Source: Oscillospiraceae bacterium (lineage in GTDB: Bacteria > Bacillota > Clostridia > Oscillospirales > CAG-272). Taken from it: a DNA stretch of 64,000 nt. The position numbers were made by a program, and so were the translations under genes. Shown here in pieces: positions 40,298-63,760 of this stretch. The stretch is from assembly GCA_015064725.1 (NCBI GenBank), contig SVRQ01000009.1:1897-65896 (forward strand), given 5' to 3'. Positions within the stretch are counted from its first letter, which is position 1, and each line of letters begins with the position of its first letter. The notes below the pieces were generated by a model. That model was given only the letters and a program-made list of their open reading frames with translations. It had not been told where the DNA came from and made no database searches.

Positions 40298-40483
40298 AGG
40301 TAAGCTCCTTTTTAGAGTGGTTGTTGAGTTTATTCTACCATTTTTTTCTTTAAAATCAACATCAAAACCTAAAAAAAGCAAATTTCATTTAAAGTTTACA
40401 AAAACCCTTATTGATTTTTGTGGGATAACATATTATAATATATACGATAACGATATGAAATTACCGAAAGGAGATGATGTTTC

Positions 40484-41380: not shown

Positions 41381-41394
41381 CAAAGTTAAATAAG

Positions 41395-41764: not shown

Positions 41765-41786
41765 ATTGTTTATTCCAAAAAAATTA

Positions 41787-41843
41787 AACAGCAGCCTTGC
41801 GGTACTCGGATAAGAGTATCACGCAGGCTGCTGTTTTCTTTTT
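41787..41843. terminator. stem-loop terminator between rnpB and the convergent ygjV-like gene
   Basis: AAACAGCAGCCTTGCG (41787-41802) pairs with CGCAGGCTGCTGTTT (41822-41836) with one bulged T in the left arm, followed by TTTTCTTTTT. Confidence 0.7.
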
Positions 41844-42387: not shown

Positions 42388-42435
42388 AAAATATAACCCT
42401 CTTTGATGATTTTTTATACCATATGGTATTGCTCT

Positions 42436-42550
42436 GAGCGGGCGAACGCAGTTCGCCCCTACGCACATAATTGAGCTTTTAGCAAATATCAATATTATAT
42501 TTGCCGAAATTAAAGCTTTTGCTCGTAGGGGAGAACTGTGTTCTCCCGCC
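42436..42550. repeat. pair of inverted module-B hairpins
   Basis: GAGCGGGCGAACGCAGTTCGCCCCTACGC (42436-42464, inverted) and CTCGTAGGGGAGAACTGTGTTCTCCCGCC (42522-42550). Confidence 0.8.
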
Positions 42551-42718
42551 TTTTTATTGCCTGAAAAATTGCGTAAAATCAGACCTCGCCGTTTGGCTTT
42601 TTATACAGATGAAAAGCATCAATAGGCGAGCGTTTGGAGGCGGGCATTGCCCGCTTTTTTACGAACACAATTAAGGCGTATTATATCACCAAAGAGGGTT
42701 AAAATCAATATTTATGAA

Positions 42719-43450: not shown

Positions 43451-43588
43451 ATTATGTACCTCCGATGTGTGTGATTATAACGAGAAAGACCTCCGCCTCT
43501 CTGTTTTTTAGTCGCAGAAAGGGGAGGTTTTTCTCATTTTCTTTCAAAAAATTTATAAAAGGAGTTTAATAGTTTGCTGTTTTTTGAA

Positions 43589-43730
43589 CCTCTTTCGTCA
43601 CAATTTCATTGTGACACCTTCCCCAAAGGGGAAGGCGCATAGAACAACATTAAATTTTCATAAAACCTCTTTCGCTGTGGCAGGCCTTCCCCTTTGGGGA
43701 AGGTGTCAACCGCAGGTTGACGGAAGAGGT
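43589..43730. repeat. two module-A hairpin repeats in inverted orientation
   Basis: 43589-43637 is the reverse complement of module A. 43684-43730 is the forward copy, with GTCAACCGCAGGTTGAC as a variant second hairpin. Confidence 0.85.
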
Positions 43731-43731
43731 A

Positions 43732-44907: not shown

Positions 44908-44911
44908 TGTG

Positions 44912-46846
44912 TCAGTTCTCCTTGTCTTTTGTATAGTTGAGAAGTCCGCCTGCGAGAAGTATTTCGCGCTGGCGTGCCGTTGCTGCGAGGACGAGCGTTA
45001 CGTTTTCGCCCGTTGTCTTGTTGCAAAGTGTAAGCTCCTCTTTGTTTGCAATGCCGTCTGCAAAGCCGAGAATCTCTATATCGTCACCCTCTGCGATCTT
45101 TTCGTAATCGTCGGGGTCTTTGAACGTGAGGGGGATTATGCCGAAGTTGATAAGGTTTGCCATATGGATGCGCGCAAAGCTCTTTGCAACGACCGCCTTG
45201 ATACCGAGGTAAAGGGGAACGAGAGCCGCGTGCTCACGAGAGGAGCCCTGACCGTAGTTTGCACCGCCCACGATGATGCCGCCGCCAAGAGCCTTTGCTC
45301 TTTCGGGGAATTCTTTATCGCATACCGTGAAGCAGAATTCGGAAAGCTTCGGTACGTTGGAACGGTAGGGAAGTATCTTTGTGCCGGCGGGCATAATGTG
45401 GTCTGTTGTGATATTGTCGCCAACCTTGAGCACTGTCTTGCAGGAAAGGTCTTGTGCGGGGCGCACGCCTTTGGGGATGGGCTTGATGTTGGGGCCGCGC
45501 TCAACAAGAACGTCTGCCGATTCTTCTGCACTTGCGGGCATTTCTATAAGGTTATCGTTTACCTTCATAACCTCGGGGAGCGCGATCTCGGGAGCTTTTC
45601 CGAGCGTTCTGGGGTCTGTGAATACGCCCGTGATGGCGGAGGCTGCCGCCGTCTGGGGAGAAACGAGATATACCTTTGCATCGGCAGTGCCGCTTCTTGC
45701 TTCAAAGTTGCGGTTGAAGGTGCGAAGGCTGACACCTGCGGATTTGGGGGAGAAGCCCATACCGATGCAGGGACCGCACGCACATTCAAGGATTCTTGCG
45801 CCTGCGCTTACCATATCCGTAAGAGCGCCGCAGTCCGCAAGCATAGAGAGAACTTCTTTTGAGCCGGGGGAAACGGACATTTCTACGTCCGCGTGAACGG
45901 TTTTATCCTTGAGTATCGAGGATACCGTGAGCATATCGAGCATAGAAGAGTTCGTGCAGGAGCCTACGCATACCTGGTCGAGCTTCATTCCGGCAAGCTC
46001 GGAAACGGGGCGCACGTTGTCGGGGCTGTGGGGACAAGCCGCAAGAGGCACGAGCTCGGAAAGATCTACCGTGAGAGTTTCATCGTAAACAACGTCGTCG
46101 TCGGGAGCAAGAGGAACGTAATCGCACTCTCTCTGCTGAGATTTAAGGAAAGCGAGCGTTATTTCGTCGGAGGGGAAGACGGAGCTTGTAGCGCCGAGCT
46201 CTGCGCCCATATTCGTAATGGTTGCGCGTTCGGGAACGGAGAGCGTCTTAACGCCTTCGCCGTAGTATTCAACTACCTTTCCCACGCCGCCCTTAACGCC
46301 GAGCTTGGAAAGAACGTAGAGGATAACATCCTTGGCACCTACGAAATCGGGGAGCTTGCCTTTAAGCTCTACGCCGATTATCTTGGGCATATTGATGTAA
46401 TACGCGCCGCCGCCCATTGCAACGGCTACGTCAAGGCCGCCCGCACCCATTGCGAGCATACCAAGACCGCCCGCCGTGGGGGTATGGCTGTCGGAGCCGA
46501 TGAGGGTTTTGCCGGGTATTCCGAATCTTTCAAGGTGTACCTGGTGGCAGATGCCGTTGCCGGGACGGGAGAAACGCACGCCGTGCTTCTTTGTCACCGT
46601 CTGGATATATCTGTGGTCGTCTGCATTTTCAAAGCCGGCCTGAAGCGTGTTGTGGTCGATATATGCCACGGAAAGCTCTGTTTTAACTCTTTCCGTGCCC
46701 ATCGCTTCAAACTGGAGGTACGCCATAGTACCCGTTGCGTCCTGTGTAAGTGTCTGGTCTATGCGGAGTCCTATCTCGCTTCCCGGAGTCATTTCACCGG
46801 AAACGAGGTGGTTTTTGATTATTTTCTGCGCTATGGTAAGTCCCAT
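44912..46846 (-). CDS. aconitate hydratase
   Basis: Aconitase Fe-S ligand regions IGSDSHTP, GSCTNSS and CGPCIG. C-terminal swivel domain. 644 aa. Confidence 0.9.
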   Translation of the reverse strand: MGLTIAQKIIKNHLVSGEMTPGSEIGLRIDQTLTQDATGTMAYLQFEAMGTERVKTELSVAYIDHNTLQAGFENADDHRYIQTVTKKHGVRFSRPGNGICHQVHLERFGIPGKTLIGSDSHTPTAGGLGMLAMGAGGLDVAVAMGGGAYYINMPKIIGVELKGKLPDFVGAKDVILYVLSKLGVKGGVGKVVEYYGEGVKTLSVPERATITNMGAELGATSSVFPSDEITLAFLKSQQRECDYVPLAPDDDVVYDETLTVDLSELVPLAACPHSPDNVRPVSELAGMKLDQVCVGSCTNSSMLDMLTVSSILKDKTVHADVEMSVSPGSKEVLSMLADCGALTDMVSAGARILECACGPCIGMGFSPKSAGVSLRTFNRNFEARSGTADAKVYLVSPQTAAASAITGVFTDPRTLGKAPEIALPEVMKVNDNLIEMPASAEESADVLVERGPNIKPIPKGVRPAQDLSCKTVLKVGDNITTDHIMPAGTKILPYRSNVPKLSEFCFTVCDKEFPERAKALGGGIIVGGANYGQGSSREHAALVPLYLGIKAVVAKSFARIHMANLINFGIIPLTFKDPDDYEKIAEGDDIEILGFADGIANKEELTLCNKTTGENVTLVLAATARQREILLAGGLLNYTKDKEN

Positions 46847-46861
46847 ATCGGTGGTGTCCTT

Positions 46862-47521
46862 TCAATCTTTATTTTGTATTATGGTAAGCAGGTTTGAGAG
46901 TGCGAGCTCTACGTGCGCGGACATGAGCGAATCCGCGCCATCGGCATCGCCTTTTTTGATAGCTTCAACGATCTCTCTGTGTTCCGCCAATGATCTTTCA
47001 AGCCGTCCCTTAACGGAAAGGGAAAGCTTGCGGTAGCACACGATGTAGCGGTGAAGCTCCGAAAGCGTTTTGCCGAGTATCCTGCTTTGGCAATAGCCGT
47101 AGATTATATCGTGAAAGTCGGAATCAAGGTCCTTGAGCTTTTCTATATTTCCCTTGGACATATAAAATTCCGTAAGCTCTATGTTGTCCGAAAGCTGACG
47201 GATGAGCGTTTCGTCTGCGTTTTCCGCGGCGATGCGCGCGGCAAGCCCCTCAAGGCGCGTTCTTATTTTATATATATCGATAAGATCGCGCTCGGAAATG
47301 CCAACGACCACCGCGCCCTTGTTCGGGCGAAGCTTTATAAGCCCCTCGCGGTCGAGGCGCTGGAGTGCTTCGCGCACGGGTGTGCGGCTTACGCCCAGCT
47401 CCTTTGAAAGCTTCATTTCCGTAACGGAGTCACCAGCACGAAGCTTTTGGGAAAGTATTTGATCTTCAAGTATGTTATAGACCTTTTCTTCAAGTGTTGA
47501 TGCTCCGTCCGGTTGAAACAT
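46862..47521 (-). CDS. GntR-family transcriptional regulator (FadR/FCD subfamily)
   Basis: Winged HTH (LSKELGVSRTPVREALQRLDREGLI) plus a C-terminal FCD domain. 219 aa. Confidence 0.88.
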   Translation of the reverse strand: MFQPDGASTLEEKVYNILEDQILSQKLRAGDSVTEMKLSKELGVSRTPVREALQRLDREGLIKLRPNKGAVVVGISERDLIDIYKIRTRLEGLAARIAAENADETLIRQLSDNIELTEFYMSKGNIEKLKDLDSDFHDIIYGYCQSRILGKTLSELHRYIVCYRKLSLSVKGRLERSLAEHREIVEAIKKGDADGADSLMSAHVELALSNLLTIIQNKD

Positions 47522-47547
47522 CTTTGCGTCCTGCCTTCTGTTGTAGA

Positions 47548-48954
47548 TTATTCTTCGGTGGTCTGCGCTTCTTCTTTTGCGTTTGCTGCTTCAAGCTCCT
47601 TGCTAAGGGAGATGAATATCTCTTCGAGCTCGGGATCCGTCATAAGCGTCACTCTGCCTTCGGCGTAAAGCTTGTCGATAGCATCCTTCATTTTAATAAC
47701 TATCTCGTCACGCTTGGATACCGTTTCCTCTCCGCGCAAGCGGTAGTGGTTGTTTATCCAATATGCAATTCCCGCAAGGCCTGATGTGTTGGAAACGGAA
47801 ACGCTGGCGGGCACGCCGAGTATGCGCTCCGTATCGAAGATATTGTATATCTCCGCATCCTTCATCATACCGTCTGCGTGAATACCCGCGCGGGTTACGT
47901 TGAAGTTTTCTCCGATGAACGGGGTCATAGGAGGTACGTTGTAGCCGAGGTTCTTTTTATAGTATTCCGCTATCTCTGTGATAACAGAGGGATCCATACC
48001 GTCGAAGGAGCCGCGGATGGAGGCATATTCGATAACCATTGCCTCAAGCGGCACGTTGCCCGTGCGTTCTCCTATTCCGAGGAGCGAGCAGTTGACGGCG
48101 GAAGCACCGTAGAGCCAAGCCGTTGTGGCGTTGGAAACAGCCTTGTAGAAGTCGTTATGTCCGTGCCATTCAAGCATCTCACTCGGTACGTTTGCGTAAT
48201 GGTGCAAGCCATATACCATACCGGGAACGCTTCGGGGAAGGGCGACTTCGCTGAAAGGAACGCCGTAGCCCATAGTATCGCACATACGGATCTTTACGGG
48301 GATGTTCGCCTGCTCGGAAAGCTCTGTAAGCTCATTTACGAAGGGAACAACGAAACCGTAGAAATCGGCGCGCGTAATATCTTCAAGGTGGCAACGGGGG
48401 CGAAGGCCCGCGTTGAAGGCATCGTAAACAACGGAAAGGTACTTGTTAAGTGCCTGGGAGCGCGTCATACCGAGCTTTTTGAATATATGGTAGTCGGAGC
48501 AGGAAACGAGGATACCCGTTTCTTTGATACCGATGTCGCGCACGAGCTTGAAGTCCTCCTTCGTTGCGCGTATCCAGGTCGTGATCTCCGGGAATTTATA
48601 GCCGAGCTCCATGCATTTCTCAACGGCGTCGCGGTCTTTTTTGCTGTAAACGAAAAATTCGCTCTGGCGAATTATGCCTTTTTCACCGCCGAGGCGCGAG
48701 AGCATCTTGTAAAGGTCAACTATCTGCTCCGTCGTATAGGGGGCGCGGGACTGCTGACCGTCGCGGAAGGTCGTGTCCGTGATCCATATTTCCTTGGGCA
48801 TAGAGATGGGCACTCTGCGGTGGTTGAACGGAACTTTCGGAACTTCCGTATAAGGATATATATCTCTGTACAGGTTGGGGTTTTCAACGTCCTGAAGAGA
48901 GTATTTGTATTGCGAAAATTCAAGCAAATTACTTGCGTCGCTTCTTGTAAGCAT
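47548..48954 (-). CDS. putative Re-face citrate synthase (HMGL-like / homocitrate-isopropylmalate synthase family)
   Basis: DRE-TIM metallolyase motifs TDTTFRDGQQ and EWHGHNDFYKAVSNATTAW. It is the first gene of an operon with aconitase and IDH. 468 aa. Confidence 0.65.
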   Translation of the reverse strand: MLTRSDASNLLEFSQYKYSLQDVENPNLYRDIYPYTEVPKVPFNHRRVPISMPKEIWITDTTFRDGQQSRAPYTTEQIVDLYKMLSRLGGEKGIIRQSEFFVYSKKDRDAVEKCMELGYKFPEITTWIRATKEDFKLVRDIGIKETGILVSCSDYHIFKKLGMTRSQALNKYLSVVYDAFNAGLRPRCHLEDITRADFYGFVVPFVNELTELSEQANIPVKIRMCDTMGYGVPFSEVALPRSVPGMVYGLHHYANVPSEMLEWHGHNDFYKAVSNATTAWLYGASAVNCSLLGIGERTGNVPLEAMVIEYASIRGSFDGMDPSVITEIAEYYKKNLGYNVPPMTPFIGENFNVTRAGIHADGMMKDAEIYNIFDTERILGVPASVSVSNTSGLAGIAYWINNHYRLRGEETVSKRDEIVIKMKDAIDKLYAEGRVTLMTDPELEEIFISLSKELEAANAKEEAQTTEE

Positions 48955-48973
48955 TGTTTATTCCTCCAAAGGG

Positions 48974-49001
48974 ATTGTATGATTGTATACAATTATACAA
49001 T
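48974..49001. promoter_or_regulatory. candidate GntR operator: 26/28 palindrome with a perfect 12-bp core
   Basis: ATTGTATgATTGTATACAATtATACAAT. The core ATTGTATACAAT lies at 48982-48993 and overlaps the -10 box and the predicted transcription start of the minus-strand operon. Confidence 0.55.
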
Positions 49002-49020
49002 TGAGTTTGGGCTTTGTCAA
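48992..49020 (-). promoter_or_regulatory. consensus SigA promoter of the citrate synthase-gntR-acn-idh operon
   Basis: On the minus strand: TTGACA (49020-49015), 17-nt spacer, TATAAT (48997-48992). Confidence 0.7.
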
Positions 49021-49309: not shown

Positions 49310-50152
49310 TTGAATAAAATAATTCTCAAGACCCAGCTTTTGTATTCCGAAATGGGAAAATCCGAAAAAAAGGTTGCGGATTGGCTTATTTCCCATCCGG
49401 GAGATAATCTTCCGATGTCTATTTCGGAGCTTGCCGAGCTTTGCGAAAGCTCGGAATCCACCATTGTGCGTTTTGCCCGCAGGCTCGGCTTTTCCGGCTA
49501 CGGAGAGCTTAAGATCTGCGTTGCGGGAGAGCAGGAGAAAAAGGTGGTATTGCCCACGATAAACGAAAATGACTCCTGCTTTGAGATACTTGAAAAAATA
49601 TGTAACGATGCATACCTTTCCTTTGAGCGCACAAAGCGCACCATCGCTCCCGAAAACATTGCCGCCGCGGCAAACCTTATCGCGGGCGCGGGCAAGACCG
49701 TGCTTATCGGTCTCGGCTCCTCCGCCTCCGTTGCACAGGATGCGGCAAACAAGTTTTTGCGCGCCGGCTACCCCGCGTACTCCTACGGGGATACGCATAT
49801 GCAGATGATAGCTGCCTCCCATATGAAGGCGGGGGACGTGCTTATAGGCGTTTCCCAATCCGGTGCTTCAAAGGATATAGTGGAGGCGCTCAAGTTCGCA
49901 AAGAGCCGCGGAATCTCCACCATCTGCATCACGGGTACAGATAGATCGCCCATTATGAAACAGAGCGACATCGTACTTTTAACGGACACGGAGGAAACGA
50001 AGCACAGCTCCCTTGCGCTGAGTTCCCATCTGTCGCGCCTGGTTGTCATAGACTCTCTTTGCTATTACCTTGTATATAGAAACGAGGCAAACGGCACGGG
50101 CCTTGACGAGGAAAACGAAAATAACCTCAGATCCAAACGCGTTAACGAATAA
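49310..50152 (+). CDS. MurR/RpiR-family transcriptional regulator (HTH + SIS sugar-phosphate domain)
   Basis: HTH_6 region (EKKVADWLISHPGD...SISELAELCESSESTIVRFARRLGFSGY). SIS domain (VLIGLGSSASVAQD...VSQSGASKD). TTG start. Confidence 0.85.
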   Translation: MNKIILKTQLLYSEMGKSEKKVADWLISHPGDNLPMSISELAELCESSESTIVRFARRLGFSGYGELKICVAGEQEKKVVLPTINENDSCFEILEKICNDAYLSFERTKRTIAPENIAAAANLIAGAGKTVLIGLGSSASVAQDAANKFLRAGYPAYSYGDTHMQMIAASHMKAGDVLIGVSQSGASKDIVEALKFAKSRGISTICITGTDRSPIMKQSDIVLLTDTEETKHSSLALSSHLSRLVVIDSLCYYLVYRNEANGTGLDEENENNLRSKRVNE

Positions 50153-50195
50153 ACAGTCAATTTTTATACAAGCAAATAAATGCGGAGGAAAAGTT

Positions 50196-51395
50196 ATGAA
50201 AATTTTGGTTATCAACTCGGGCAGTTCATCGCTTAAATATCAGCTTTTCGATATGACAAGCGGGGAAGTGCTTGCAAAAGGCCTTTGCGAACGCATCGGC
50301 GGCGAATGCGGTATCATTACCCACAAGCGCCCCGGACACGAGCCATATAAGGCAGAACCCGTGCTTCCCGACCACGGTGCGGCTCTTTCTCTGGTTCTTG
50401 GTCTTATCACGGATAAGGAGCTTGGCGTTATCGAGCATATCGACGAGATAGAAGCTGTTGGCCACCGCGTGGCACACGGCGGCGAAATGCTCAAGAGCTC
50501 TTCTCTTATCGGAGAAAAGGAGCTTGAATACCTCTATTCCATCGTGGATATAAACCCCCTGCACGGTCCGCCCGCGATCAAGGGCATAGAAGCGTGCAAA
50601 AAGCTTCTTCCCAAGGTACCGCAGGTCGGCGTTTTCGATACGTCTTATTACAGCACGATACCCGATTACACTTACATCTGCCCTTTGCCTTACGAATATT
50701 ACGAAAAATATAAAATACGCCGCTACGGCTTCCACGGCACCAGCCACCGTTTTGTAACGGCGGAATGTGCAAAGATCATGGGCAAGCCGCTTGAAGAACT
50801 TAAAATAATCACTTGCCATATGGGCAACGGCTCCTCCATCACGGCAACAAAATACGGCAAGGCTCTTGATACGTCTATGGGCTTTACCCCTCAGGACGGT
50901 CTTATAATGGGTACACGCTCCGGCGCTATAGACCCTACCGTTCTTACATATATTATGAAAACGGAAAACGTTTCCGCACAGGAAATGGACGATATAATCA
51001 ACCGCAAATCCGGTCTTCTCGGTGTTTCCGGCGTTTCCAACGACTGCCGCGAGATCTGGGAAGCTGCGGACGCAGGCAATAAGAGAGCAAAGCTTGCGCT
51101 CGATATGCTTATAAACGACGTTAAAAAGATAGTAGGCTCTTACCTTGCCGAAATGAACGGCGCGGATGCGCTCGTATTCACAGCGGGTATCGGCGAAAAT
51201 GACTTTGCCGTACGCGAAGGCGTTTGCCGCGATATGGATTTCTTCGGTATCAAGATAGACGAAGAAAAGAACAAGAACGCCGCAAGAGGCGAATTTAACG
51301 ATATTACCGCGCCGGACGGAAAGATGAAGGTCTTCATCATTCCCACGGACGAGGAATATATGATAGCAAAAGACACACAAAATCTTGTAAAATAA
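50196..51395 (+). CDS. ackA: acetate/propionate kinase
   Basis: Start moved to ATG 50196 (GGAGGA RBS). MKILVINSGSSSLKYQLF, HRVAHGG, YGFHGTSH, FTAGIGEN. 399 aa. Confidence 0.93.
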   Translation: MKILVINSGSSSLKYQLFDMTSGEVLAKGLCERIGGECGIITHKRPGHEPYKAEPVLPDHGAALSLVLGLITDKELGVIEHIDEIEAVGHRVAHGGEMLKSSSLIGEKELEYLYSIVDINPLHGPPAIKGIEACKKLLPKVPQVGVFDTSYYSTIPDYTYICPLPYEYYEKYKIRRYGFHGTSHRFVTAECAKIMGKPLEELKIITCHMGNGSSITATKYGKALDTSMGFTPQDGLIMGTRSGAIDPTVLTYIMKTENVSAQEMDDIINRKSGLLGVSGVSNDCREIWEAADAGNKRAKLALDMLINDVKKIVGSYLAEMNGADALVFTAGIGENDFAVREGVCRDMDFFGIKIDEEKNKNAARGEFNDITAPDGKMKVFIIPTDEEYMIAKDTQNLVK

Positions 51396-51418: not shown

Positions 51419-52222
51419 ATGGTTTCATCTTTCGAAATTAAAAAAGAGATCTGCGAAGTAGGTCACAAAATCTATGCAGAGGGCTTCGTTGCTGCAAACG
51501 ACGGTAACATCTCCGTTAAAGTAAACGATAACGAATACTACTGCACCCCCACAGGCGTTTCCAAGGGCGACCTTACACCCGATATGATCATTCGTATCGA
51601 CGGCAAGGGCAACAAGATCGAAGGCAGACTCAACCCCTCCTCCGAAATTAAAATGCACCTCCGTGTTTACCAGGAACGTCCCGACGTAAACGCAGTTGTA
51701 CACGCTCATCCCCCCGTTGCAACAGCCTTCACAGTTGCAGGCGTACCGCTTGACAAGTACATCCTTCCCGAAGCAGTTCTTACAATCGGCTTCGTTCCCA
51801 CTTGCGAATACGGTACACCCTCCACAATGGAAATTCCCGATTCCCTTATGCCCTACATCCAGAACCACGACGCGTTCCTTCTCAAAAACCACGGTGCTCT
51901 TACAGTAGGTAACACACTTAAAAAAGCTTTCTTCACAATGGAAGAAGTTGAATTCAACGCAAAGATCTGCAAATACGCTATGGAACTCGGCAAGGTTGAA
52001 GAAATTCCTTGCGATCAGCTTGAAAAGCTCATGGATCTCCGTAAGAAGATGCGTATCCCCGGCAAGCACCCCGGCTGCAAAACTTGCAAAAACCTCGGCA
52101 CACCCGATTGCAAGTGCAAACAGAATGCAGAACCCAAGAGCGGCATCGTAACGGCTTCCGGCGCTGACGAAGCTCTCATTGCTGAAATCACAAAGAAAGT
52201 TCTCGCTTCTCTTGGCAGATAA
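51419..52222 (+). CDS. class II aldolase (L-fuculose/rhamnulose-phosphate aldolase-like) with a C-terminal encapsulation peptide
   Basis: Aldolase_II motifs (GNISVKV, EIKMHLRVY, VVHAHPP, LLKNHGALTVG). C-terminal extension CKTCKNLGTPDCKC followed by the amphipathic helix DEALIAEITKKVLASL. Confidence 0.85.
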   Translation: MVSSFEIKKEICEVGHKIYAEGFVAANDGNISVKVNDNEYYCTPTGVSKGDLTPDMIIRIDGKGNKIEGRLNPSSEIKMHLRVYQERPDVNAVVHAHPPVATAFTVAGVPLDKYILPEAVLTIGFVPTCEYGTPSTMEIPDSLMPYIQNHDAFLLKNHGALTVGNTLKKAFFTMEEVEFNAKICKYAMELGKVEEIPCDQLEKLMDLRKKMRIPGKHPGCKTCKNLGTPDCKCKQNAEPKSGIVTASGADEALIAEITKKVLASLGR

Positions 52223-52267
52223 TTTTTGGCTTTGCTGAAAATTAAACCTTGAAAGGAGAGATATAAA

Positions 52268-53725
52268 ATGGCAATCAACTGGACAGACGCGCAGATAGAA
52301 GAGATCGTTAAAATGGTCGTTTCCCAGATCGGCGGCGAGGCGAAAAAAGAAACGCCCGCATTCGATTCCGAAAGCTATAACGGCAGAAAATTTATCGGTA
52401 TCTTCGAGGATATGAACGATGCCATAAACGCCGCAAATGCAGGCTATAAGGCAATTCGCTCTATGCGCGTTGAAGAAAGAGAAAAGCTCATCTCCAAGAT
52501 CCGCGAGCTTACGCGCGAGGAAGCCGAAATTATGGCGACCATCGGCGTTGCGGAAACAAAGATGGGCAGAGTAGATCACAAGATCGCAAAACACCGTCTT
52601 GTAGCAGACAAGACGCCCGGAACGGAAGACATCATCTCTCAGGTTAAAACAGGCGACTGCGGTCTTACGCTTACGGAAATGGCTCCTTTCGGCGTTGTTG
52701 GCAGCATTACTCCCAGCACGAACCCTTCCGAAACAGTCATCTGCAACAGTATGGGTATGATAGCGGCGGGCAACGGTATCGTTTTCAACCCCCACCCCAA
52801 CGCTATTGCAACATCCAACTATGCCGTTGACCTTATAAACCGTGCGTGCTTCGCAGCGGGCGGCCCCAAGATACTTGTTGCCTCCGTTAAGAAGCCCACG
52901 CTCGATACGGCGAACATTATGTATAAGAGCCCGCTTATCAGACTTCTCGTTTGTACCGGCGGCCCCGGCGTTGTAAAAGCTGTTCTTTCCTCCGGCAAGA
53001 AGGCTATCGGCGCGGGCGCGGGAAATCCCCCCGTTATCGTTGACGATACGGCGGATATAAAGAAAGCCGCAAAAGACATTATCGACGGCTGTACGTTCGA
53101 TAACAACCTGCCCTGCATCGCGGAAAAGGAAGTTTTCGCGTTCGACAATATTGCGGACGAGCTTATCGACGGTATGCTGAAGAACGGCGCATACAAGATC
53201 ACGGCGGCGCAAGCGGACGAGCTTGCAAAGATAGTTCTCGTTGACGTTAAGAACCCCAAAACAGGCATCGTTAAGAAGACTGTTTGCCGCGACTGCGTCG
53301 GCAGAGATGCAAAGGTGCTTCTCTCCAAGATCGGCGTAAGCGTTGGCGATGAGGTTCGCTGCATTATATGCGAAACGGGCTTTGACCACCTCTTCGTTCA
53401 GGAAGAGCTTATGATGCCCATCCTTCCCATCGTTCGCGTTAAGAACATCGACGAAGCTATCGAAAAGGCTGTTGCCGCAGAACACGGAAACAGACATACG
53501 GCTCATATGCACTCCAAGAATATCGACAACCTCACAAGATTTGCGCGTGCGGTTGAAACGACTATATTCGTTAAAAACGCTCCTTCCTACGCGGGCATAG
53601 GCTTTGGCGGCGAAGGACATACAACATTTACTATCGCAGGCCCCACGGGCGAGGGTATCACCTCCGCGAAGAGCTTTACTCGCCTTCGCCGCTGCGTAAT
53701 GGCGGACAATTTCCGCATAATCTAA
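52268..53725 (+). CDS. CoA-acylating aldehyde dehydrogenase (PduP/EutE-like) with an N-terminal encapsulation peptide
   Basis: N-terminal helix TDAQIEEIVKMVVSQI followed by a linker. ALDH core with catalytic Cys in NNLPCIAEKE. 485 aa. Confidence 0.88.
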   Translation: MAINWTDAQIEEIVKMVVSQIGGEAKKETPAFDSESYNGRKFIGIFEDMNDAINAANAGYKAIRSMRVEEREKLISKIRELTREEAEIMATIGVAETKMGRVDHKIAKHRLVADKTPGTEDIISQVKTGDCGLTLTEMAPFGVVGSITPSTNPSETVICNSMGMIAAGNGIVFNPHPNAIATSNYAVDLINRACFAAGGPKILVASVKKPTLDTANIMYKSPLIRLLVCTGGPGVVKAVLSSGKKAIGAGAGNPPVIVDDTADIKKAAKDIIDGCTFDNNLPCIAEKEVFAFDNIADELIDGMLKNGAYKITAAQADELAKIVLVDVKNPKTGIVKKTVCRDCVGRDAKVLLSKIGVSVGDEVRCIICETGFDHLFVQEELMMPILPIVRVKNIDEAIEKAVAAEHGNRHTAHMHSKNIDNLTRFARAVETTIFVKNAPSYAGIGFGGEGHTTFTIAGPTGEGITSAKSFTRLRRCVMADNFRII

Positions 53726-53744
53726 TCGAAAGGATGAGATAGAA

Positions 53745-54992
53745 ATGGCATTTAACCCTTCCGACATTGAAAGCATCGTTCGCAAGATCGTAAGCGAGAT
53801 GAACGGCGCGGGCGAGCACAAGCACGAATGCTGCGGCGGCCACGGCGGCGAATGCAAATGCGGCAAGCATTCCGCAGGCATCCCCAAGACAGCCAAGGTT
53901 GCGATGCTTACAAAAACAAAAACTATCGAGATCAAGGAATTCCCCATTCCCGAACTTCAGGATGACGACATCCTCGTTAAGGTAGAAGGCGCAGGCATCT
54001 GCGGTACGGACGTTCACGAATGGAGAGCAGACCCGTTCGGTCTTATGCCCGTAGTCCTCGGTCACGAAGGCACAGGCGAGATCATTGCTCTCGGTAAAAA
54101 CATTAAAACAGATACATCCGGCAAGCCCATCAAGGTTGGCGATAAGGTGGTAACTTCCGTTATCTCCTGCGGCGAATGCAACATCTGCCGCAACCATCCC
54201 GCGAATACAAACCTTTGCGACAAGCAGGGCGTGTTCGGCCTTATCCCCCACAATGACGAACAGCCCCTCCTCGGCTGGTTCGCAACACATCTTCTTATCC
54301 GCGGCAAGGGTTCTACATACTTTGTTGTAAACGACCTTGACCTTTACGAAAGAATGATACTTGAGCTTGCTTGCGTTTGCGTTCACGCCCTCAAGCGTGC
54401 AAACGGCACAGGTCTTATGAATTTCAATACTAAAGTTGTTATCCAGGGTCTTGGCCCCGTTGGTCTTGTTATGGCTTGCGTGCTCCGCGCGGCGGGTATC
54501 AACCATATCATCGCCATCGACGGTACACAGACAAGACTTGATATGGCTAAAAAGCTCGGCGTTAAGACAGTCATCAACTTCAAGGAAGCAAAAACTCTTG
54601 AAGAGCGCGTAGCTCTCGTTACGGAAGCGTGCGGCGGCAACCTTGCCGACTTCGCATTCCAGTGCACGGGCGTTCCCGCGGCTGCTGCCGACATCTACTC
54701 CTACATCCGCCGCGGCGGCGGTATGTGCGAAATGGGCTTCTTCGTTAACAACGGCGAATACCAGATCAACCCCCACTTCACAATGTGCAACAAAGAGATC
54801 AACCTTGTTGGTTCTTGGGACTACAGCGCAGACGATTATCCCACAACAATGGCGTTCCTCCGTCAGGCAAGAGAGATGAACATTCCGATCAAAGAACTCA
54901 TCACTCATACATATCCGCTTGAAAAGATGAACGAAGCAATGGAAATGAACGTTTCCCAGCAGGGCATAAAGATCTGCTACGTTGCTGACTAA
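53745..54992 (+). CDS. zinc-dependent MDR alcohol dehydrogenase with an N-terminal encapsulation peptide
   Basis: N-terminal helix SDIESIVRKIVSEM, then HKHECCGGHGGECKCGKH. The MDR core has GICGTDVHEW, GHEGTGEI, structural Zn site CGECNICRNHPANTNLC, and GLGPVG NAD-binding fold. 415 aa. Confidence 0.85.
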   Translation: MAFNPSDIESIVRKIVSEMNGAGEHKHECCGGHGGECKCGKHSAGIPKTAKVAMLTKTKTIEIKEFPIPELQDDDILVKVEGAGICGTDVHEWRADPFGLMPVVLGHEGTGEIIALGKNIKTDTSGKPIKVGDKVVTSVISCGECNICRNHPANTNLCDKQGVFGLIPHNDEQPLLGWFATHLLIRGKGSTYFVVNDLDLYERMILELACVCVHALKRANGTGLMNFNTKVVIQGLGPVGLVMACVLRAAGINHIIAIDGTQTRLDMAKKLGVKTVINFKEAKTLEERVALVTEACGGNLADFAFQCTGVPAAAADIYSYIRRGGGMCEMGFFVNNGEYQINPHFTMCNKEINLVGSWDYSADDYPTTMAFLRQAREMNIPIKELITHTYPLEKMNEAMEMNVSQQGIKICYVAD

Positions 54993-55003
54993 GGAGAGCG
55001 CAT

Positions 55004-55342
55004 ATGGCACTCGGTATGATAGAAGTTTACGGCTTTACCACGGCTATCGTTGTAGCAGATAAGGTTGCAAAAAGTGCCGATGTCAAGGTCGTTGCTATAG
55101 ACAAAAATAAGCCCGCAAACGCAGATAAGGTGGAAGTTCCCCTTGTTATGGTAGTTAAGTTTGAGGGCGGCGCTTCCGAGGTTGCCGCGGCTATGGACGC
55201 AGGCGTTGCGGAAGCGGAAAAGAGAAATCTTTTCATTACATCAAAGCTTATTTCCAGACAGTCGGAGGAGATAGAGTGGTTCGCGAATCTCAGCGCACTC
55301 GGAAAAGACAAACTCCGCAACACGGAAAAAGAAGAAAACTAA
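55004..55342 (+). CDS. BMC-H shell protein (divergent, with internal insertion and C-terminal tail)
   Basis: Pfam00936-type start ALGMIEVYGFTTAIVVADKVAKSADV. Insertion DKNKPANADKVEVP. 112 aa. Confidence 0.8.
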   Translation: MALGMIEVYGFTTAIVVADKVAKSADVKVVAIDKNKPANADKVEVPLVMVVKFEGGASEVAAAMDAGVAEAEKRNLFITSKLISRQSEEIEWFANLSALGKDKLRNTEKEEN

Positions 55343-55391
55343 AAAAAATAAAAATCAAACAAAAATATAAAATTAAAGGAGAACAATTATT

Positions 55392-55667
55392 ATGCAGGAA
55401 GCACTCGGTATGGTAGAAACAAGAGGTCTCGTTGCAGCTATCGAAGCAGCGGACGCAATGGTTAAAGCAGCAAACGTAACACTCGTAGGTAGCGAAAAGA
55501 TCGGTTCCGGTCTCGTAAGCGTAATGGTTCGCGGCGACGTTGGCGCTGTTAACGCAGCAGTTGCAGCAGGCGGCGAAGCAGCTCAGAGACTCGGCGAAGT
55601 AGTTGCTACACACGTAATTCCTCGTCCTCACACAGACGTTGAAAAACTTCTCCCTAAACTCGGCTAA
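55392..55667 (+). CDS. BMC-H shell protein (PduA/PduJ-like)
   Basis: [27 protein letters not shown]...[10 protein letters not shown]...HVIPRPH. 91 aa. Confidence 0.93.
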
Positions 55668-55691
55668 TTCTTAAAGAAACGGTACGAAATT

Positions 55692-55967
55692 ATGGATCAG
55701 GCAATAGCGTTACTCGAAGTACAGGCGCTCGTTACAGCCATCGCGGGACTTGATGCGATGGTAAAGGCGGCAAATGTAAAGCTCATCCACGTCGAGAAAC
55801 GCTTGGGCGGACGATTGGTAACAGTCGTTGTGCAGGGCAGCGTGTCCGATGTGACCGCGGCTCTTGAAGCAGGTGTAAAAGCGGCGAAGCTTGTTGGCAA
55901 CGTAAAACTTGCGGAAGTTATCGCACGCCCGCACCCCGACGTTATGAGCTTTCTCACAACGGGTTGA
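55692..55967 (+). CDS. BMC-H shell protein (divergent paralog)
   Basis: [28 protein letters not shown]...VVVQGSVSDV...VIARPH. 91 aa. Confidence 0.88.
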   Translation: MDQAIALLEVQALVTAIAGLDAMVKAANVKLIHVEKRLGGRLVTVVVQGSVSDVTAALEAGVKAAKLVGNVKLAEVIARPHPDVMSFLTTG

Positions 55968-56016
55968 TAAGACCCATTTGAAGAAATACAAAAAATTTTA
56001 ATGGAGGTAATATACA

Positions 56017-56289
56017 ATGGAAGCACTCGGTATGGTAGAAACAAGAGGTCTTGTTGCGGCTATCGAAGCAGCAGATGCTATGGTTAAATCCGCTAACGTT
56101 ACACTTATCGGCAGCGAAAAGATCGGTTCCGGTCTCGTAAGCGTAATGGTTCGCGGCGACGTTGGCGCTGTTCAGGCTGCTGTTGCAGCAGGCGGCGACG
56201 CAGCTCAGAGACTCGGCGAAGTTGTAGCTACACACGTAATTCCTCGTCCTCACACAGACGTTGAAAAACTTCTCCCCAAGCTCGGCTAA
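56017..56289 (+). CDS. BMC-H shell protein (PduA/PduJ-like, near-duplicate of 55392..55667)
   Basis: Differs from the 55392 product by 4 substitutions and a 1-residue indel. 90 aa. Confidence 0.93.
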
Positions 56290-56578: not shown

Positions 56579-57235
56579 ATGGAATATTCATCTGCGGAAA
56601 TAGCCGCAATCGTTAAAAAAGTTATATCCGATATGGGAAGCACCGAAGAAAATAACGGCGCAGACGTGCCGATCGGCGTTTCCAACCGCCACGTACACCT
56701 TTCCAGAGAGCACCTCGATATTCTTTTCGGGAAGGGATACGAGCTTACGAAAGCCAAAGACCTTTCTCAGCCGGGACAGTATGCGGCAAACGAGGTAGTA
56801 ACTATTGTCGGACCCTCGCTTCGCCCCATCGAAAAGGTAAGAGTTCTCGGTCCCATCCGTTCCGCTTCCCAGGTGGAAGTATCTATGACGGACTCTTACG
56901 TACTCAAGGTCAAGCCCCCTGTGCGCGAATCCGGCAGCATCGAAGGCTCTGCGGGTATCACAATGATCGGCCCAAAGGGTGTTGTAACTCTTAAAGAGGG
57001 CTGCATTATCGCAAACCGCCACATACATATGGGCATTGCCGATGCCGAAAAATACGCGGTATCCGACGGAGATTACGTTACCGTTGACGTTGAGGGCAAG
57101 GGCAAAAAGACACGCTGGTACGGCGTTCAGGTAAGAGTAAACAAGAATTTTGCTCTTGAAATGCACGTTGACACGGATGACGCAAACGCTGCGGGAATCG
57201 GCAACGGCAGCCTTGTTAAAATTGTCAAAGAATAA
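56579..57235 (+). CDS. pduL: phosphate propanoyltransferase PduL (PTAC) with an N-terminal encapsulation peptide
   Basis: N-terminal helix SAEIAAIVKKVISDM. Two PduL repeats (VSNRHVHLS..., IANRHIHM...). 218 aa. Confidence 0.92.
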   Translation: MEYSSAEIAAIVKKVISDMGSTEENNGADVPIGVSNRHVHLSREHLDILFGKGYELTKAKDLSQPGQYAANEVVTIVGPSLRPIEKVRVLGPIRSASQVEVSMTDSYVLKVKPPVRESGSIEGSAGITMIGPKGVVTLKEGCIIANRHIHMGIADAEKYAVSDGDYVTVDVEGKGKKTRWYGVQVRVNKNFALEMHVDTDDANAAGIGNGSLVKIVKE

Positions 57236-57525: not shown

Positions 57526-58956
57526 ATGTCGGGTGAAATGAACAATATTTCCGTTAAGGAAACGAAATATCCGCTTTACAGAAAACCCGCGCCCGCACCC
57601 GATACGCACGACGGCATACTTCGTATGACCGCCACACATATCGAGTTTAAGGAAAGCGTAAAGACCGCCGGCATTGTCGGCGCGGGCGGCGCAGGTTTCC
57701 CATCTTACGCGAAGATCGCAGACGGCGTTGATACGATTCTTATCAACGGCGCGGAATGTGAGTCCCTGCTTTATACGGACTACGTTCTTATGCGCGATGA
57801 GCTTCGCAAAGTAGTGGAGGGTATAGATCACGTTGTTACGAATACAACGGCGAAAAAAGGTCTTCTTTGCGTAAAGGAGCATACGGGCAAGGAGCTTGGC
57901 TTCTTTGACGGGCAGAAGCTTTCCGAGCATACATTTGTGAAGTTTTTGCCGAACGTGTATCCTATGGGCGATGAAGTAAGCCTTATTTATGAGGCTACGG
58001 GCAGAAGCATCAAGCCCGGTTCGCTCCCCATCTCCGTGGGCGTTATAGTTTACAACGTGGAAACGGTTTTTGATATAAGAGAAGCACTCAAACACAGAAT
58101 TGCAGTTACGCATAAATGGCTTACGGTTGGCGGAAACACGGAAAAGAGCTTTGTTGTAAGAGTTCCCGTGGGTATGTACGTAAAGGAGCTTTTGGAAATG
58201 CTCGGTGTCAGCGTGCCGAAGGGCAACGTGGTGCTTGACGGCGGTCCGGCTATGGGCAGAGTTATAGATCACGAACGCGCCGCCGTTACAAAGACGACAA
58301 AATCGATCCTTATACTGCCCGAAAGCTTGCCGATAATACAGAGCAAGATGACGTCGCTTGACGTGCAGGTGCGCCGCGGCACTTCCGCGTGCTGCCAATG
58401 CACAAGATGTACGGACCTTTGCCCCAGAAACCAGCTCGGTTATCCTTTGGAGCCGCACAAGCTCGTGCGCGCGGCGCAGGGCGCAGGTATCGTTGACCCC
58501 AAGATATTCGCAACGGCAACGCTTTGCTGCGGATGCGGCATTTGCGAGCACGCGGCGTGCGGTCAGGGTCTTTCCCCCAGAGCGATGATATTTAAGCTCA
58601 AGGACGATCTTGCAAAGAACAAGACGAGATATATTTCCGACGAAACCATCTCTCCCAGAGATACAAGGGATTACCGCCTTATCTCAAGCGAGCGTTGGAA
58701 AGAGATAATCGGCGTTTCCAAATATGATAAGAAAGCCGAATTTATAGATAAGGACTTTGCTCCCTCCAGAGTAGAAATATCTATGAGAGGCCACATAGGC
58801 GCACCCTCCGTTCCTTGCGTTGAAAAGGGACAGGCAGTTGCCTTGGGCGAAAAGATAGCGGACGCGGCAGACGGACTTTCGCTTCCGCAGTACGCTTCCA
58901 TCTCCGGCGTTTGCCGCCGTGTGGACAGCGACAAGATAATCATTGAAAGAATATAA
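57526..58956 (+). CDS. PduS/RnfC-like Fe-S flavoprotein
   Basis: GAGGAGFPSYAK and NGAECESLL (RnfC/PduS NADH-FMN region). SLBB-like middle. Two 4Fe-4S motifs, CCQCTRCTDLCP and CCGCGICEHAC. 476 aa. Confidence 0.8.
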   Translation: MSGEMNNISVKETKYPLYRKPAPAPDTHDGILRMTATHIEFKESVKTAGIVGAGGAGFPSYAKIADGVDTILINGAECESLLYTDYVLMRDELRKVVEGIDHVVTNTTAKKGLLCVKEHTGKELGFFDGQKLSEHTFVKFLPNVYPMGDEVSLIYEATGRSIKPGSLPISVGVIVYNVETVFDIREALKHRIAVTHKWLTVGGNTEKSFVVRVPVGMYVKELLEMLGVSVPKGNVVLDGGPAMGRVIDHERAAVTKTTKSILILPESLPIIQSKMTSLDVQVRRGTSACCQCTRCTDLCPRNQLGYPLEPHKLVRAAQGAGIVDPKIFATATLCCGCGICEHAACGQGLSPRAMIFKLKDDLAKNKTRYISDETISPRDTRDYRLISSERWKEIIGVSKYDKKAEFIDKDFAPSRVEISMRGHIGAPSVPCVEKGQAVALGEKIADAADGLSLPQYASISGVCRRVDSDKIIIERI

Positions 58957-58977: not shown

Positions 58978-59523
58978 ATGTATCAGGCCATAGGTATAAT
59001 TGAGCTTAAAAGTATAGCTAAAGGCGTTGAAGCGTGTGACTCCGCGCTTAAAAGCGCAGGCATTACGCTTGTCAGCGCACATCCGTCGTGTCCCGGAAAA
59101 TATGAGATAATCATCACGGGTGCTATTGCCGACGTAAGCGCGGCTCTCTCCCACGTGAAAACAAGATTTGAAGGAACTATAATAGACTCCTCCCTTATGG
59201 GCAGAATAGATCCGCAGGTCATCACCGCGCTCTTCGGCACGGAGCCCATAAAGAAAAGCGGCTCTCTCGGCGTTATAGAAACGTACAGCGCGGCAAGCGC
59301 AATAAAGGCTGCGGATATTGCCGTTAAAACGGCAAAGGTCGATATATACGATCTTCGCGTTTCTCGCGGTATGGGCGGTAAGGGTCTTGTTATGGTGACG
59401 GGCGACGTCGGTGACGTAAATGCGGCTGTTGAAGCAGGCGCTTCCCACGCGGCGGACCTCGGACTTCTTATGAACAAATCCGTTATTGCCGCACCGCACA
59501 AAGAGCTTTGGGAACAAATTTGA
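58978..59523 (+). CDS. BMC-T tandem-domain shell protein (PduT-like)
   Basis: Two fused BMC domains (AIGIIELKSIAKGVEACD... and SLGVIETYSAASAIKAAD...). The Cys in HPSCPGKY sits where PduT binds its pore Fe-S cluster. 181 aa. Confidence 0.88.
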   Translation: MYQAIGIIELKSIAKGVEACDSALKSAGITLVSAHPSCPGKYEIIITGAIADVSAALSHVKTRFEGTIIDSSLMGRIDPQVITALFGTEPIKKSGSLGVIETYSAASAIKAADIAVKTAKVDIYDLRVSRGMGGKGLVMVTGDVGDVNAAVEAGASHAADLGLLMNKSVIAAPHKELWEQI

Positions 59524-62072: not shown

Positions 62073-62075
62073 TAT

Positions 62076-62103
62076 GAAACCATAGCCAAACGGCTATGGT
62101 TTC
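62076..62103 (+). other. perfect 12-bp stem-loop right after the GRE stop codon (no U-tract)
   Basis: GAAACCATAGCC-aaac-GGCTATGGTTTC. Confidence 0.6.
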
Positions 62104-62135
62104 CCCATAATTTAATTTTTAAGAGGTATTTTAAA

Positions 62136-62402
62136 ATGGATAACGAAAATGTGATCGTTCTTATGGACGAAGAGGGCAACGAGGTTGCGCTTGAGGTCCT
62201 TGACGAAATCGAATACGAAGGCAAAAACTACGGCGTGTTTATTTCTACCGATGAAAACGCAGACGAGGTTATAATCCTTGAAATTGCCGAAGACGGCAAC
62301 GGCGAGGCAGAATTCCTCAGCGTTGACGATGAAAAAGCTCTTGAAGCGGTTTTTGCGATCTTTATGGAAAACGCAAAGGACGATTTCGACTTTGTTGAGT
62401 AA
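62136..62402 (+). CDS. DUF1292-family small acidic protein
   Basis: VIVLMDEEGNEVALEVLDEIEYEGKNYGVFIS...EVIILEI...EFLSVDDEKALEAVFAIF matches the DUF1292 pattern (from memory). 88 aa. Confidence 0.75.
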   Translation: MDNENVIVLMDEEGNEVALEVLDEIEYEGKNYGVFISTDENADEVIILEIAEDGNGEAEFLSVDDEKALEAVFAIFMENAKDDFDFVE

Positions 62403-62433
62403 TTTGGCTTGAAAAAAGAAAGGAGGAGCGCCT

Positions 62434-63233: not shown

Positions 63234-63385
63234 AATGCGTGAAAAAACGTAGGGACAGGCGTCCCCGAATGTTTGTTTTTACAAACGGGAGGAGCAAGCC
63301 TCCCCTACGATGCACGGACCAAAGATGCGCAAAAAAATGTAGGGACAGGCGTCCTCGACTGTCCGTCTTTATAAATGGGAGGAGA
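63234..63385 (+). repeat. two direct copies of a roughly 60-bp module-B-type repeat between the activase and the PduU-like gene
   Basis: ATGCGtgAAAAAAcGTAGGGACAGGCGTCCcCGA...GGGAGGAG lies at 63234-63295 and again at 63324-63385. The second copy supplies the GGGAGGAG RBS of the next gene. Confidence 0.85.
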
Positions 63386-63391
63386 TATTGT

Positions 63392-63760
63392 ATGAATGAA
63401 ATTTCAATGCAGGATAAGATGCGTATAATACAGGAGCTTGTTCCCGGCAAGCAGATAACGCTTGCACATATTATCGCAAATCCCGATCCGATACTTTTTC
63501 AGAAGCTGGGTCTTGACCCGAAGAATGATTATAAGAGAAGCGCCATCGGCGTGCTTACGGTGAGCCCTGCGGAAACCGCAGTCATCTGCGCTGATATTGC
63601 GATGAAATCCTCCGGCGCTGCGGTCGAGTTTGTGGATAGATTTACAGGTACAGTTATTATAGCGGGAACGGTATCCGAGGTGGAGGCTTCCATAACCGCT
63701 ATGGCAGGCTACTGCAAGGATAAGCTCCACTACACAGTTTGTGAAATTACAAAGACATAA
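63392..63760 (+). CDS. circularly permuted BMC-H shell protein (PduU/EutS type)
   Basis: Start moved to ATG 63392; the ORF-track N-terminus is repeat DNA. RIIQELVPGKQITLAHIIANP...GVLTVSPAETAVICADIAMKSSG. 122 aa. Confidence 0.88.
   Translation: MNEISMQDKMRIIQELVPGKQITLAHIIANPDPILFQKLGLDPKNDYKRSAIGVLTVSPAETAVICADIAMKSSGAAVEFVDRFTGTVIIAGTVSEVEASITAMAGYCKDKLHYTVCEITKT

Follow-up and report, generated by a model that had tools for sequence, protein, structure and literature searches.

Glycyl radical enzyme-associated microcompartments (GRMs) of type 5 (GRM5) turn fucose and rhamnose from host and diet into propionate and propanol in animal guts, via a glycyl radical enzyme. A GRM5 locus is defined by a propanediol-dehydratase glycyl radical enzyme, a fuculose-phosphate aldolase (pfam00596) and a lactaldehyde reductase (pfam00107 plus pfam08240); every such locus also has PduS and PduT, and its activase lacks a ferredoxin insertion (Ferlez 2019, PMC6325248). 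The alcohol dehydrogenase (ADH) of the microcompartment loci of Clostridium phytofermentans and Roseburia inulinivorans is a zinc-dependent medium-chain dehydrogenase/reductase (MDR) unrelated to PduQ, for which propanol formation was proposed as the role (Petit 2013, PMC3557285). A survey of encapsulation peptides (EPs) found a C-terminal EP on the class II aldolases of bacterial microcompartments (BMCs) and no obvious EP on the alcohol dehydrogenases examined, for which piggy-backing was proposed; EP linkers were described as poorly conserved, and the aldolase linkers were tabulated at 5.5% Cys without comment (Aussignargues et al. 2015, PMC4594438). Here we describe a Cys/His-rich tether that joins the EP to the ADH of a GRM5 locus in a 64,000-nucleotide stretch of DNA from an Oscillospiraceae bacterium (contig SVRQ01000009.1; the whole stretch is hereafter the window), together with the Cys clusters that lie beside the EPs of other GRM5 cargo proteins.

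The window carries a complete GRM5 locus: profile searches with Pfam and NCBIfam together with the ORF list, set against the Ferlez 2019 definition, recovered every published component (Table 1), including an activase without the ferredoxin insertion, as the definition demands, on which Pfam recognises Radical_SAM and Fer4_12 only. The ADH open reading frame (ORF) starts at an ATG with the N-terminus MAFNPSDIESIVRKIVSEMNGAGEHKHECCGGHGGECKCGKHSAGIPKTAKVAML and matches ADH_N over residues 73-185 (65.8 bits against a cut-off of 23.5; 4.7e-18) and ADH_zinc_N over residues 238-372 (77 bits against 31.8; 1.6e-21), with no Fe-ADH match in Pfam at E <= 0.01; the profile search of the locus ORFs returned no second ADH gene. 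An earlier note on this DNA, made from the sequence, had called the enzyme a zinc-type MDR with the motifs GHEGTGEI and CGECNICRN...C rather than an iron-type ADH, and that assignment holds. Its surprise at a zinc-type enzyme in place of Fe-ADH does not, because this is the already published GRM5 norm (PMC3557285, PMC6325248); the contrast with Fe-ADH fits Pdu and GRM3 loci. Cphy_1179 of C. phytofermentans and ABC25529 of R. inulinivorans are, like the window ADH, zinc-type MDR enzymes (pfam00107 plus pfam08240), and their genes, like the window gene, directly follow those of a class II aldolase and an acylating aldehyde dehydrogenase (AldDH) in a microcompartment locus with a glycyl-radical propanediol dehydratase. 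The ~50%-identical relatives of this type share the EP-linker-IPKTA architecture of the window ADH but have Ala/Pro/Ser-rich linkers without Cys or His, whereas the window linker, 26 residues long, holds 4 Cys and 4 His.

The fold of the ADH matches 1vj0 and sorbitol and threonine dehydrogenases by sequence and by Foldseek. TM0436 of Thermotoga maritima (1vj0) is the closest solved relative (E 4.8e-43 by sequence; top Foldseek match, E 5e-26, TM 0.69-0.78) and has the same zinc-ligand motifs, but it shares only ~26% identity, aligns only from query residue 58, lacks the N-terminal helix and tether and lies outside microcompartments. The catalytic ligands C86, H107, E108 and E207 align with the ligand motifs of 1vj0 and 1e3j, and, with all zinc ligands and GxGxxG kept, the enzyme looks functional. 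The Rossmann motif GLGPVG and Asp259 suggest a preference for NAD(H) over NADP(H), as judged from MDR enzymes in general. From the literature and pathway logic, the ADH would use NADH to reduce the lactaldehyde that the adjacent encapsulated aldolase supplies, yielding 1,2-propanediol, and would thereby regenerate NAD+ within the shell for the acylating AldDH. A scan with one genome per species found relatives of the ADH in 448 genomes; the source organisms of the homologues are gut Clostridia from ruminant and human gut metagenome assemblies, and the window organism is known from metagenome assemblies only.

AlphaFold2 (AF2) predicts a helix over residues 5-19 of the ADH and an MDR fold that sets in at residue 49; residues 19-43 are predicted to be disordered, with a predicted local distance difference test (pLDDT) score below 50. 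The hydrophobic moment of the helix lies in the top 3% of shuffles, and its motif, x-S-Q-V-E-S-I-V-R-K-I-L-G-E-M, recurs in 118 of the 120 closest ADH clusters (P0044 and P0049 begin inside the linker) and in the ~50%-identical relatives from human-gut metagenomes. P0125, P0129 and P0132, non-BMC relatives whose sequence opens directly with the MDR fold, lack it, as does 1vj0. The N-termini of ADH, AldDH and PduL and the C-terminus of the aldolase of the locus have an I-x-x-I-V-K/R-K-V/I pattern in common; the nearest described counterparts of the ADH peptide are the EPs of PduP, PduD, PduL and BMC class II aldolases (PMC4594438). Judged by predicted structure and conservation, the helix behaves as an EP, as the earlier note had suggested; the ADHs of the 2015 survey showed no obvious EP, whereas this enzyme has its own. 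The amphipathic residues 5-19 would thus bring the ADH into the compartment, and residues 20-45 would form a flexible tether between EP and enzyme. Enzyme class and targeting helix are textbook GRM5, with nothing new in either.

The core of the tether, HKHECCGGHGGECKCGKH, contains Cys29, Cys30, Cys37 and Cys39 together with His25, His27, His33 and His42, forming CC and CKC motifs with no aromatic residue. Counting the residues bears out the 4 Cys and 4 His within 18 residues ahead of the MDR fold that had been noted before, and the coordinates given then for helix (residues 6-19, 53760-53801) and stretch (residues 25-42, 53817-53870) are exact. Across six frames of the window, among ORF segments of at least 100 aa, an 18-residue stretch with at least 7 Cys plus His (at least 3 Cys) occurs only here and in one antisense shadow frame. 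The identical 415-aa protein is found on 6 contigs, the three places listed for them being three different samples, so the tract is not an assembly artefact.

Most ADH orthologues carry a linker of ~10 Gly, Ser, Ala and Lys residues with 0-2 Cys (GGAKKASAG type), and the ~50%-identical outgroup from human gut has 15-25 Ala/Pro/Ser-rich residues with essentially no Cys. The His/Cys-rich tether is confined to the window clade (the window itself with L001-L008 and P0001-P0007, taken from gut assemblies of deer, human and other origin) and the L163 lineage. Form A, CCGGHG[GA][ED]CKCGKH with 4 Cys, is found in the window and L002-L004; form B, CCGKCGGHGANA or CCGKCGGKSAE with 3 Cys, in L001 and L005-L007; and L008 has ECHKNCTGSC. 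The window ADH and that of L001 are 99.5% identical over the core, yet their tethers differ (CCGGHGGECKCGKH at 53802-53879 against CCGKCGGHGANAA at 10058-10123 of L001); through indels or recombination, the tether thus changes far more quickly than the enzyme itself. The two forms are mosaic, each being shared with more distant clade members, a distribution that suggests recombination, or repeated indels, restricted to the tether. All nine clade members nevertheless keep 3-4 clustered Cys. At 71% core identity, the L163 tether (KHECKCGGNCKCGGHGH) repeats the pattern KHEC.CGG..CKCG.H, whereas the lineages nearer the window, L042 (83%) and L165 (80%), lack the His/Cys form, which points to repeated loss of an old feature, to transfer among lineages or to convergence. 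A homologue search with the N-terminal 66 residues alone gave 3 fragments; the word index needs more shared words. The earlier note had allowed that its novelty would vanish if zinc-type ADHs with identical tethers were the norm in GRM5 loci: the enzyme type is the norm, the identical tether is not. The His/Cys tether is a lineage-specific variant of the EP linker, of moderate interest.

A Cys cluster had also been noted in the aldolase tail, and it proves to be a C-x2-C-x8-C-x-C knot. In the window, this tail, HPGCKTCKNLGTPDCKC, lies shortly before the C-terminal EP. A C-x2-C-x7-9-C-x-C knot is present in 115 of 120 aldolase clusters (72-97% identity), its Cys nearly invariant; 86 of the 115 have a further Cys pair, accompanied in 78 of the 86 by His, examples such as GHKHEEGHTCHCHSE and GHTCTCGKH closely resembling the window ADH tract. 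In the ~50%-identical human-gut outgroup, the aldolase tail takes another form with 4 Cys and His, LCPNAKAGKPSCHSCGGxCG, and 20 of 21 distinct intact tails hold at least 4 Cys. The AldDH tether (GGEAKKETPAFDSESYN) and PduL tether (GSTEENNGAD) of the window have no Cys. Over 80 related genomes, linker Cys content is 9.0% for ADH, 10.3% for aldolase, 4.7% for PduL and 2.1% for AldDH, against 2.4% for the locus proteins overall; the outgroup ADH and PduL linkers have no Cys except one isolated residue in L082. Linker Cys occur as CC, CxC or CxxC clusters, not singly.

The position of the cluster shifts between cargo proteins. A large subclade has lost the aldolase knot, mostly keeping the CNC pair only. 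Within it, 5 clades have at least 2 ADH-tether Cys and a known aldolase tail (e.g. CCGSSCC, CSSCSSC, CAPSCTAC), and 2 clades have 3-4 PduL-tether Cys (e.g. CKNDCVICKSRESC); the aldolase tails paired with them all have at most 1 Cys. The PduL tethers of L019, L021, L022, L023 and L050 (also L014 and L049), among them CKNDCVICKSRESC, CGGCAICKSREEC and CSGCHGC, carry 3-4 Cys with iron-sulfur (FeS)-like spacing, and the aldolase and ADH tethers there have no Cys. A strict complementarity in knot-bearing loci, by which the lack of a second aldolase pair entails a Cys-rich ADH tether, was rejected on 8 extra loci: L163 fits, L162 and L164 fail, and L165 combines a second aldolase pair with a Cys pair on the ADH, so complementarity holds only in the knot-less subclade. 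Clustered Cys are also known from shell proteins, namely the PduT pore Cys, the GrpU GxCPQ motif and the C-terminal tetracysteine of PduK, for which FeS metal binding is proposed or shown (PMC6325248); those motifs are positionally conserved, whereas the GRM5 tether clusters sit on cargo, vary and move from one cargo protein to another.

We favour reading the protein as a standard GRM5 zinc-type ADH with an EP and an accessory, disordered tether that binds metal and takes no part in catalysis, and give this joint reading about an even chance. Most orthologues lack the tract yet keep all ligands, so neither catalysis nor the metallation of the ADH's own sites depends on it. An accessory metal-binding element acting at the level of the compartment is favoured because of the composition and disorder of the tract, the retention of at least 3 Cys, the linker-specific Cys enrichment and the mutually exclusive clusters. 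In the window lineage, the tether would then be a disordered, metallothionein-like patch rich in Cys, His, Gly and Lys that binds a soft metal through thiolates and imidazoles. The thiolate-cluster motifs and the likeness of the aldolase knot to a zinc knuckle make Zn2+ our favoured candidate. The ADH tether would represent one case of a GRM5 cargo habit in which a Cys(His) cluster lies beside the EP: the aldolase tail has one in almost every case, the tether of ADH or PduL in some. For the organelle as a whole, metal ions might bridge or stiffen cargo near the shell, or the clusters might buffer zinc for the lumenal zinc enzymes. The His/Cys-rich tails of SlyD, HypB and UreE and the CC/CxC clusters of metallothioneins are likewise low-complexity, disordered, His/Cys/Gly-rich, variable among orthologues and dispensable for the core fold. 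Searches of Pfam and the PDB detected no homology between them and the window tract, which is much shorter, lies between a targeting helix and an enzyme and binds metal only putatively. We found no description of Cys-cluster tethers in GRM5 in the literature searched, although Zarzycki et al. 2015 may mention them or the ADH helix; the Cys habit of cargo tethers is apparently undescribed.

Several observations weigh against metal binding by the tether. AF2 gives the tract no confident structure (pLDDT below 50), no Pfam family matches ADH residues 1-50, and the tether has no match among PDB sequences at E <= 10; the aldolase knot found one chance match there (E 7.2). Cys number (3 or 4), His number (0-4) and spacing vary within the clade, even between near-identical proteins, as they would in unconstrained low-complexity sequence. 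The knot-bearing L162, L164, L166-L169, L042 and L065 have no ADH-tether Cys at all; because several knot-bearing relatives lack them, the tract is dispensable for the GRM5 design. In 9 of 51 complete loci, no tether has 2 or more Cys. Finally, the mutual exclusion in the knot-less subclade, where 0 loci with two Cys-bearing tethers were observed against 6.9 expected by column permutation, comes from a test that ignores phylogeny, with clades counted on a neighbour-joining tree of one protein and ~7 independent events.

A more specific proposal is that GRM5 needs one Cys(His) metal site beside an EP, as a lumenal zinc store or a metal bridge that packs cargo onto the shell, and that this site has moved between cargo proteins, being ancestrally the aldolase knot, passing to the ADH or PduL tether where the knot was lost and being duplicated on the ADH in the window clade. 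We regard this proposal as doubtful.

The main rival to metal binding by the tether is neutral low-complexity drift, a possibility to be taken seriously although we think it unlikely. Here, the linker needs only flexibility and hydrophilicity, Cys are tolerated in strict anaerobes, any metal is incidental, and indels in codon runs rich in GGC, TGC, AGC and CAC would produce transient, functionless Gly/Cys/Ser/His tracts. The tether is indeed encoded mainly by GGC, TGC, CAC and AAG, the ADH linker is hypervariable in length and sequence, and its two allele types are mosaic and differ between 99.5%-identical proteins; the unfixed Cys and His counts, the AF2 disorder and the many orthologues without the tract point the same way, as does the published view that EP linkers are poorly conserved (PMC4594438). 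Drift accounts less well for the difference, within one set of loci, between 9-10% Cys in ADH and aldolase linkers and 2.1% in AldDH linkers, with none in the outgroup ADH and PduL linkers bar L082, or for Cys that come clustered rather than singly. The clade holds at least 3 Cys while other residues turn over, the KHEC.CGG..CKCG.H pattern returns at 71% core identity, and, outside the window clade, a Cys-bearing tether on one cargo protein excludes one on another. In the DNA of the tether, Tandem Repeats Finder detected no tandem repeat, and simple tandem slippage can therefore not be demonstrated.

An iron-sulfur site is improbable. The Cys of one or several subunits would ligate a [2Fe-2S] or [4Fe-4S] cluster near the shell, forming a lumenal redox centre with PduS and PduT that could perhaps offset the ferredoxin domain missing from GRM5 activases. 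Ferredoxin- or radical-SAM-like spacing does occur elsewhere, in the PduL tethers CGGCAICKSREEC and CKNDCVICKSRESC and the ADH tethers CSSCSSC and CAPSCTAC, and accessory FeS proteins abound in GRMs, with PduS and PduT in all GRM5 loci along with activases that lack the ferredoxin insertion (PMC6325248). PduS and a PduT-like protein are both encoded in the window, as is a short activase of 261 aa. The window tract, however, consists of CC and CxC with His, Gly and Lys between them, an arrangement that is characteristic of thiolate clusters with zinc or copper, not of FeS motifs. In close relatives the Cys fall to 3, there is no Pro or aromatic context and no predicted fold, and many loci have a CxC pair only or nothing.

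A dedicated metallochaperone, an idea raised by the earlier note, is very improbable; the tether would capture Zn2+ and pass it to the catalytic and structural sites of its own MDR subunit during or after encapsulation. The composition resembles the His/Cys-rich tails of the metallochaperones SlyD and HypB. Cys clusters lie on three cargo metal enzymes, namely ADH, class II aldolase and PduL (the latter two also metal-dependent), and the linker of the metal-free AldDH is the lowest in Cys; since 3 of the 4 EP-bearing cargo proteins are metal enzymes, however, the association carries little statistical weight. In most orthologues, all eight zinc ligands are retained without any His/Cys tract, so metallation needs none, and the cluster sits on another enzyme in other lineages, which argues for an organelle-level role. 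A redox switch, in which exposure to O2 forms intermolecular disulfides that cross-link cargo or shield the oxygen-sensitive glycyl radical enzyme, would suit clustered, solvent-exposed Cys on a disordered segment in a compartment holding an oxygen-labile radical enzyme, but the hosts are strictly anaerobic gut Clostridia, the His co-enrichment is left unexplained and PMC6325248 and PMC4594438 hold no precedent for catabolic microcompartments, so we consider it least credible, close to negligible.

Table 1. Features of the GRM5 locus in the window. Positions are those of the window; residue invariance in the ADH refers to an alignment of 64 sequences.
Feature	Positions	Strand	Basis or remark
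RpiR-type regulator	49310-50152		
Acetate/propionate kinase	50070-51395	+	As TTG-start 441-aa ORF
Class II (fuculose/rhamnulose-phosphate) aldolase with C-terminal extension	51419-52222	+	Pfam Aldolase_II 9.1e-48
Aldolase-tail Cys4 knot CKTCKNLGTPDCKC, residues 220-233 (C220, C223, C231, C233)	52076-52117	+	C-x2-C-x8-C-x-C; pLDDT ~70
Aldolase C-terminal EP helix, residues 251-264	52169-52210	+	AF2, pLDDT ~84
Acylating aldehyde dehydrogenase (PduP-like), N-terminal EP	52268-53725	+	Pfam Aldedh; NCBIfam PRK15398 4.3e-201
Zinc-type MDR alcohol dehydrogenase, 415 aa, GRM5 'lactaldehyde reductase' (propanol dehydrogenase also proposed)	53745-54992	+	Pfam, 1vj0 match, literature
ADH N-terminal EP helix, residues 5-19, PSDIESIVRKIVSEM	53757-53801	+	AF2 helix, conservation, hydrophobic moment
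ADH tether/linker, residues 20-45, NGAGEHKHECCGGHGGECKCGKHSAG	53802-53879	+	pLDDT <50 over 19-43; hypervariable in orthologues
ADH His/Cys-rich core, residues 25-42, HKHECCGGHGGECKCGKH	53817-53870	+	Variants in L001-L008, P0001-P0007, L163
Start of ADH catalytic domain, IPKTAKVAML, residues 46-55	53880-53909	+	Columns P47-L55 invariant or nearly so
Catalytic zinc ligands Cys86 (GICGTD), His107 and Glu108 (GHEGTGEI, residues 106-113)	54000-54068	+	Invariant
Structural-zinc lobe Cys142, Cys145, Cys148, Cys158 (CGECNICRN...C)	54168-54218	+	Invariant; aligns with CGEC..C lobe of 1vj0
Glu207, last catalytic zinc ligand	54363-54365	+	Invariant; ILELACV aligns with LLEPLSV of ketose reductase 1e3j
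Rossmann GLGPVG (residues 235-240) and Asp259	54447-54521	+	G235, G237, G240, D259 invariant
Four BMC-H shell genes	55004-56289	+	Pfam BMC domain
PduL phosphotransacylase, N-terminal EP	56579-57235	+	Pfam PTAC 8.1e-76
BMC-P (EutN/CcmL-type) vertex protein, 82 aa	57257-57505	+	ORF; equivalent 82-aa gene called PF03319 in L170, L171
PduS-like flavo-FeS protein	57526-58956	+	Pfam Complex1_51K, Fer4_17, RnfC_N
Tandem-BMC (PduT-like) shell protein	58978-59523	+	Two BMC domains
Glycyl radical enzyme, 842 aa	59544-62072	+	Pfam PFL-like and Gly_radical; NCBIfam PFL2-3 1.1e-244
Short activating enzyme, 261 aa	62434-63219	+	Radical_SAM and Fer4_12 only
Further BMC-domain protein	63239-63760		

Several further features of the locus stand apart from the tether. 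An N-terminal extension or targeting peptide on the acetate kinase was considered and rejected as a start-codon artefact: the TTG ORF overlaps the end of the RpiR gene, the kinases of related loci measure 397-409 aa, and the true start is probably the ATG at ~50196 (MKILVINSG). Two long antisense ORFs, 51425-53947 (-; 840 aa) and 53676-55010 (-; 444 aa), lie opposite the aldolase, AldDH and ADH genes; neither has a family match in the ORF list, and both resemble shadow frames of the coding strand. The first BMC-H paralogue (55004-55342, +; 112 aa) has a charged C-terminal extension of ~25 residues, ..GKDKLRNTEKEEN, which the other three lack. The BMC-P gene between PduL and PduS is easily overlooked, falling under the 85-aa ORF cut-off; on identical contigs, its positional equivalent is called PF03319. 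The PduS-like ORF measures 476 aa in the window against 438-445 aa in the related loci L165-L169, and the ~35 additional residues at its N-terminus may represent either an extension peculiar to the lineage or a false start further upstream. Between the glycyl radical enzyme and activase genes, a gap of ~360 bp (62073-62433) holds no listed ORF of 85 aa or more.

The genes upstream of the locus, at 36103-49020, encode a prolyl-tRNA synthetase, a GH31 glycosidase, an aconitase, a GntR regulator and an HMGL-like synthase. No gene for fucose or rhamnose uptake or isomerisation is among them, so the supply of fuculose or rhamnulose phosphate must have its genes elsewhere.

The interest of these tethers rests mainly on the family-wide pattern of Cys clusters, to which the enzyme class and helix add nothing new. 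EP-adjacent linkers have been treated in the literature as featureless spacers; their strong and specific enrichment in clustered Cys, along with His, extends across hundreds of gut Clostridia. If these clusters are real metal sites, they would change the view of cargo packing and metal supply in catabolic microcompartments and bear on the design of synthetic encapsulation tags, and metal and redox conditions could affect the solubility of heterologously expressed GRM5 enzymes. If, in addition, a single required site has moved between cargo proteins, the tethers would represent a new, metal-dependent layer of cargo organisation in the microcompartment.

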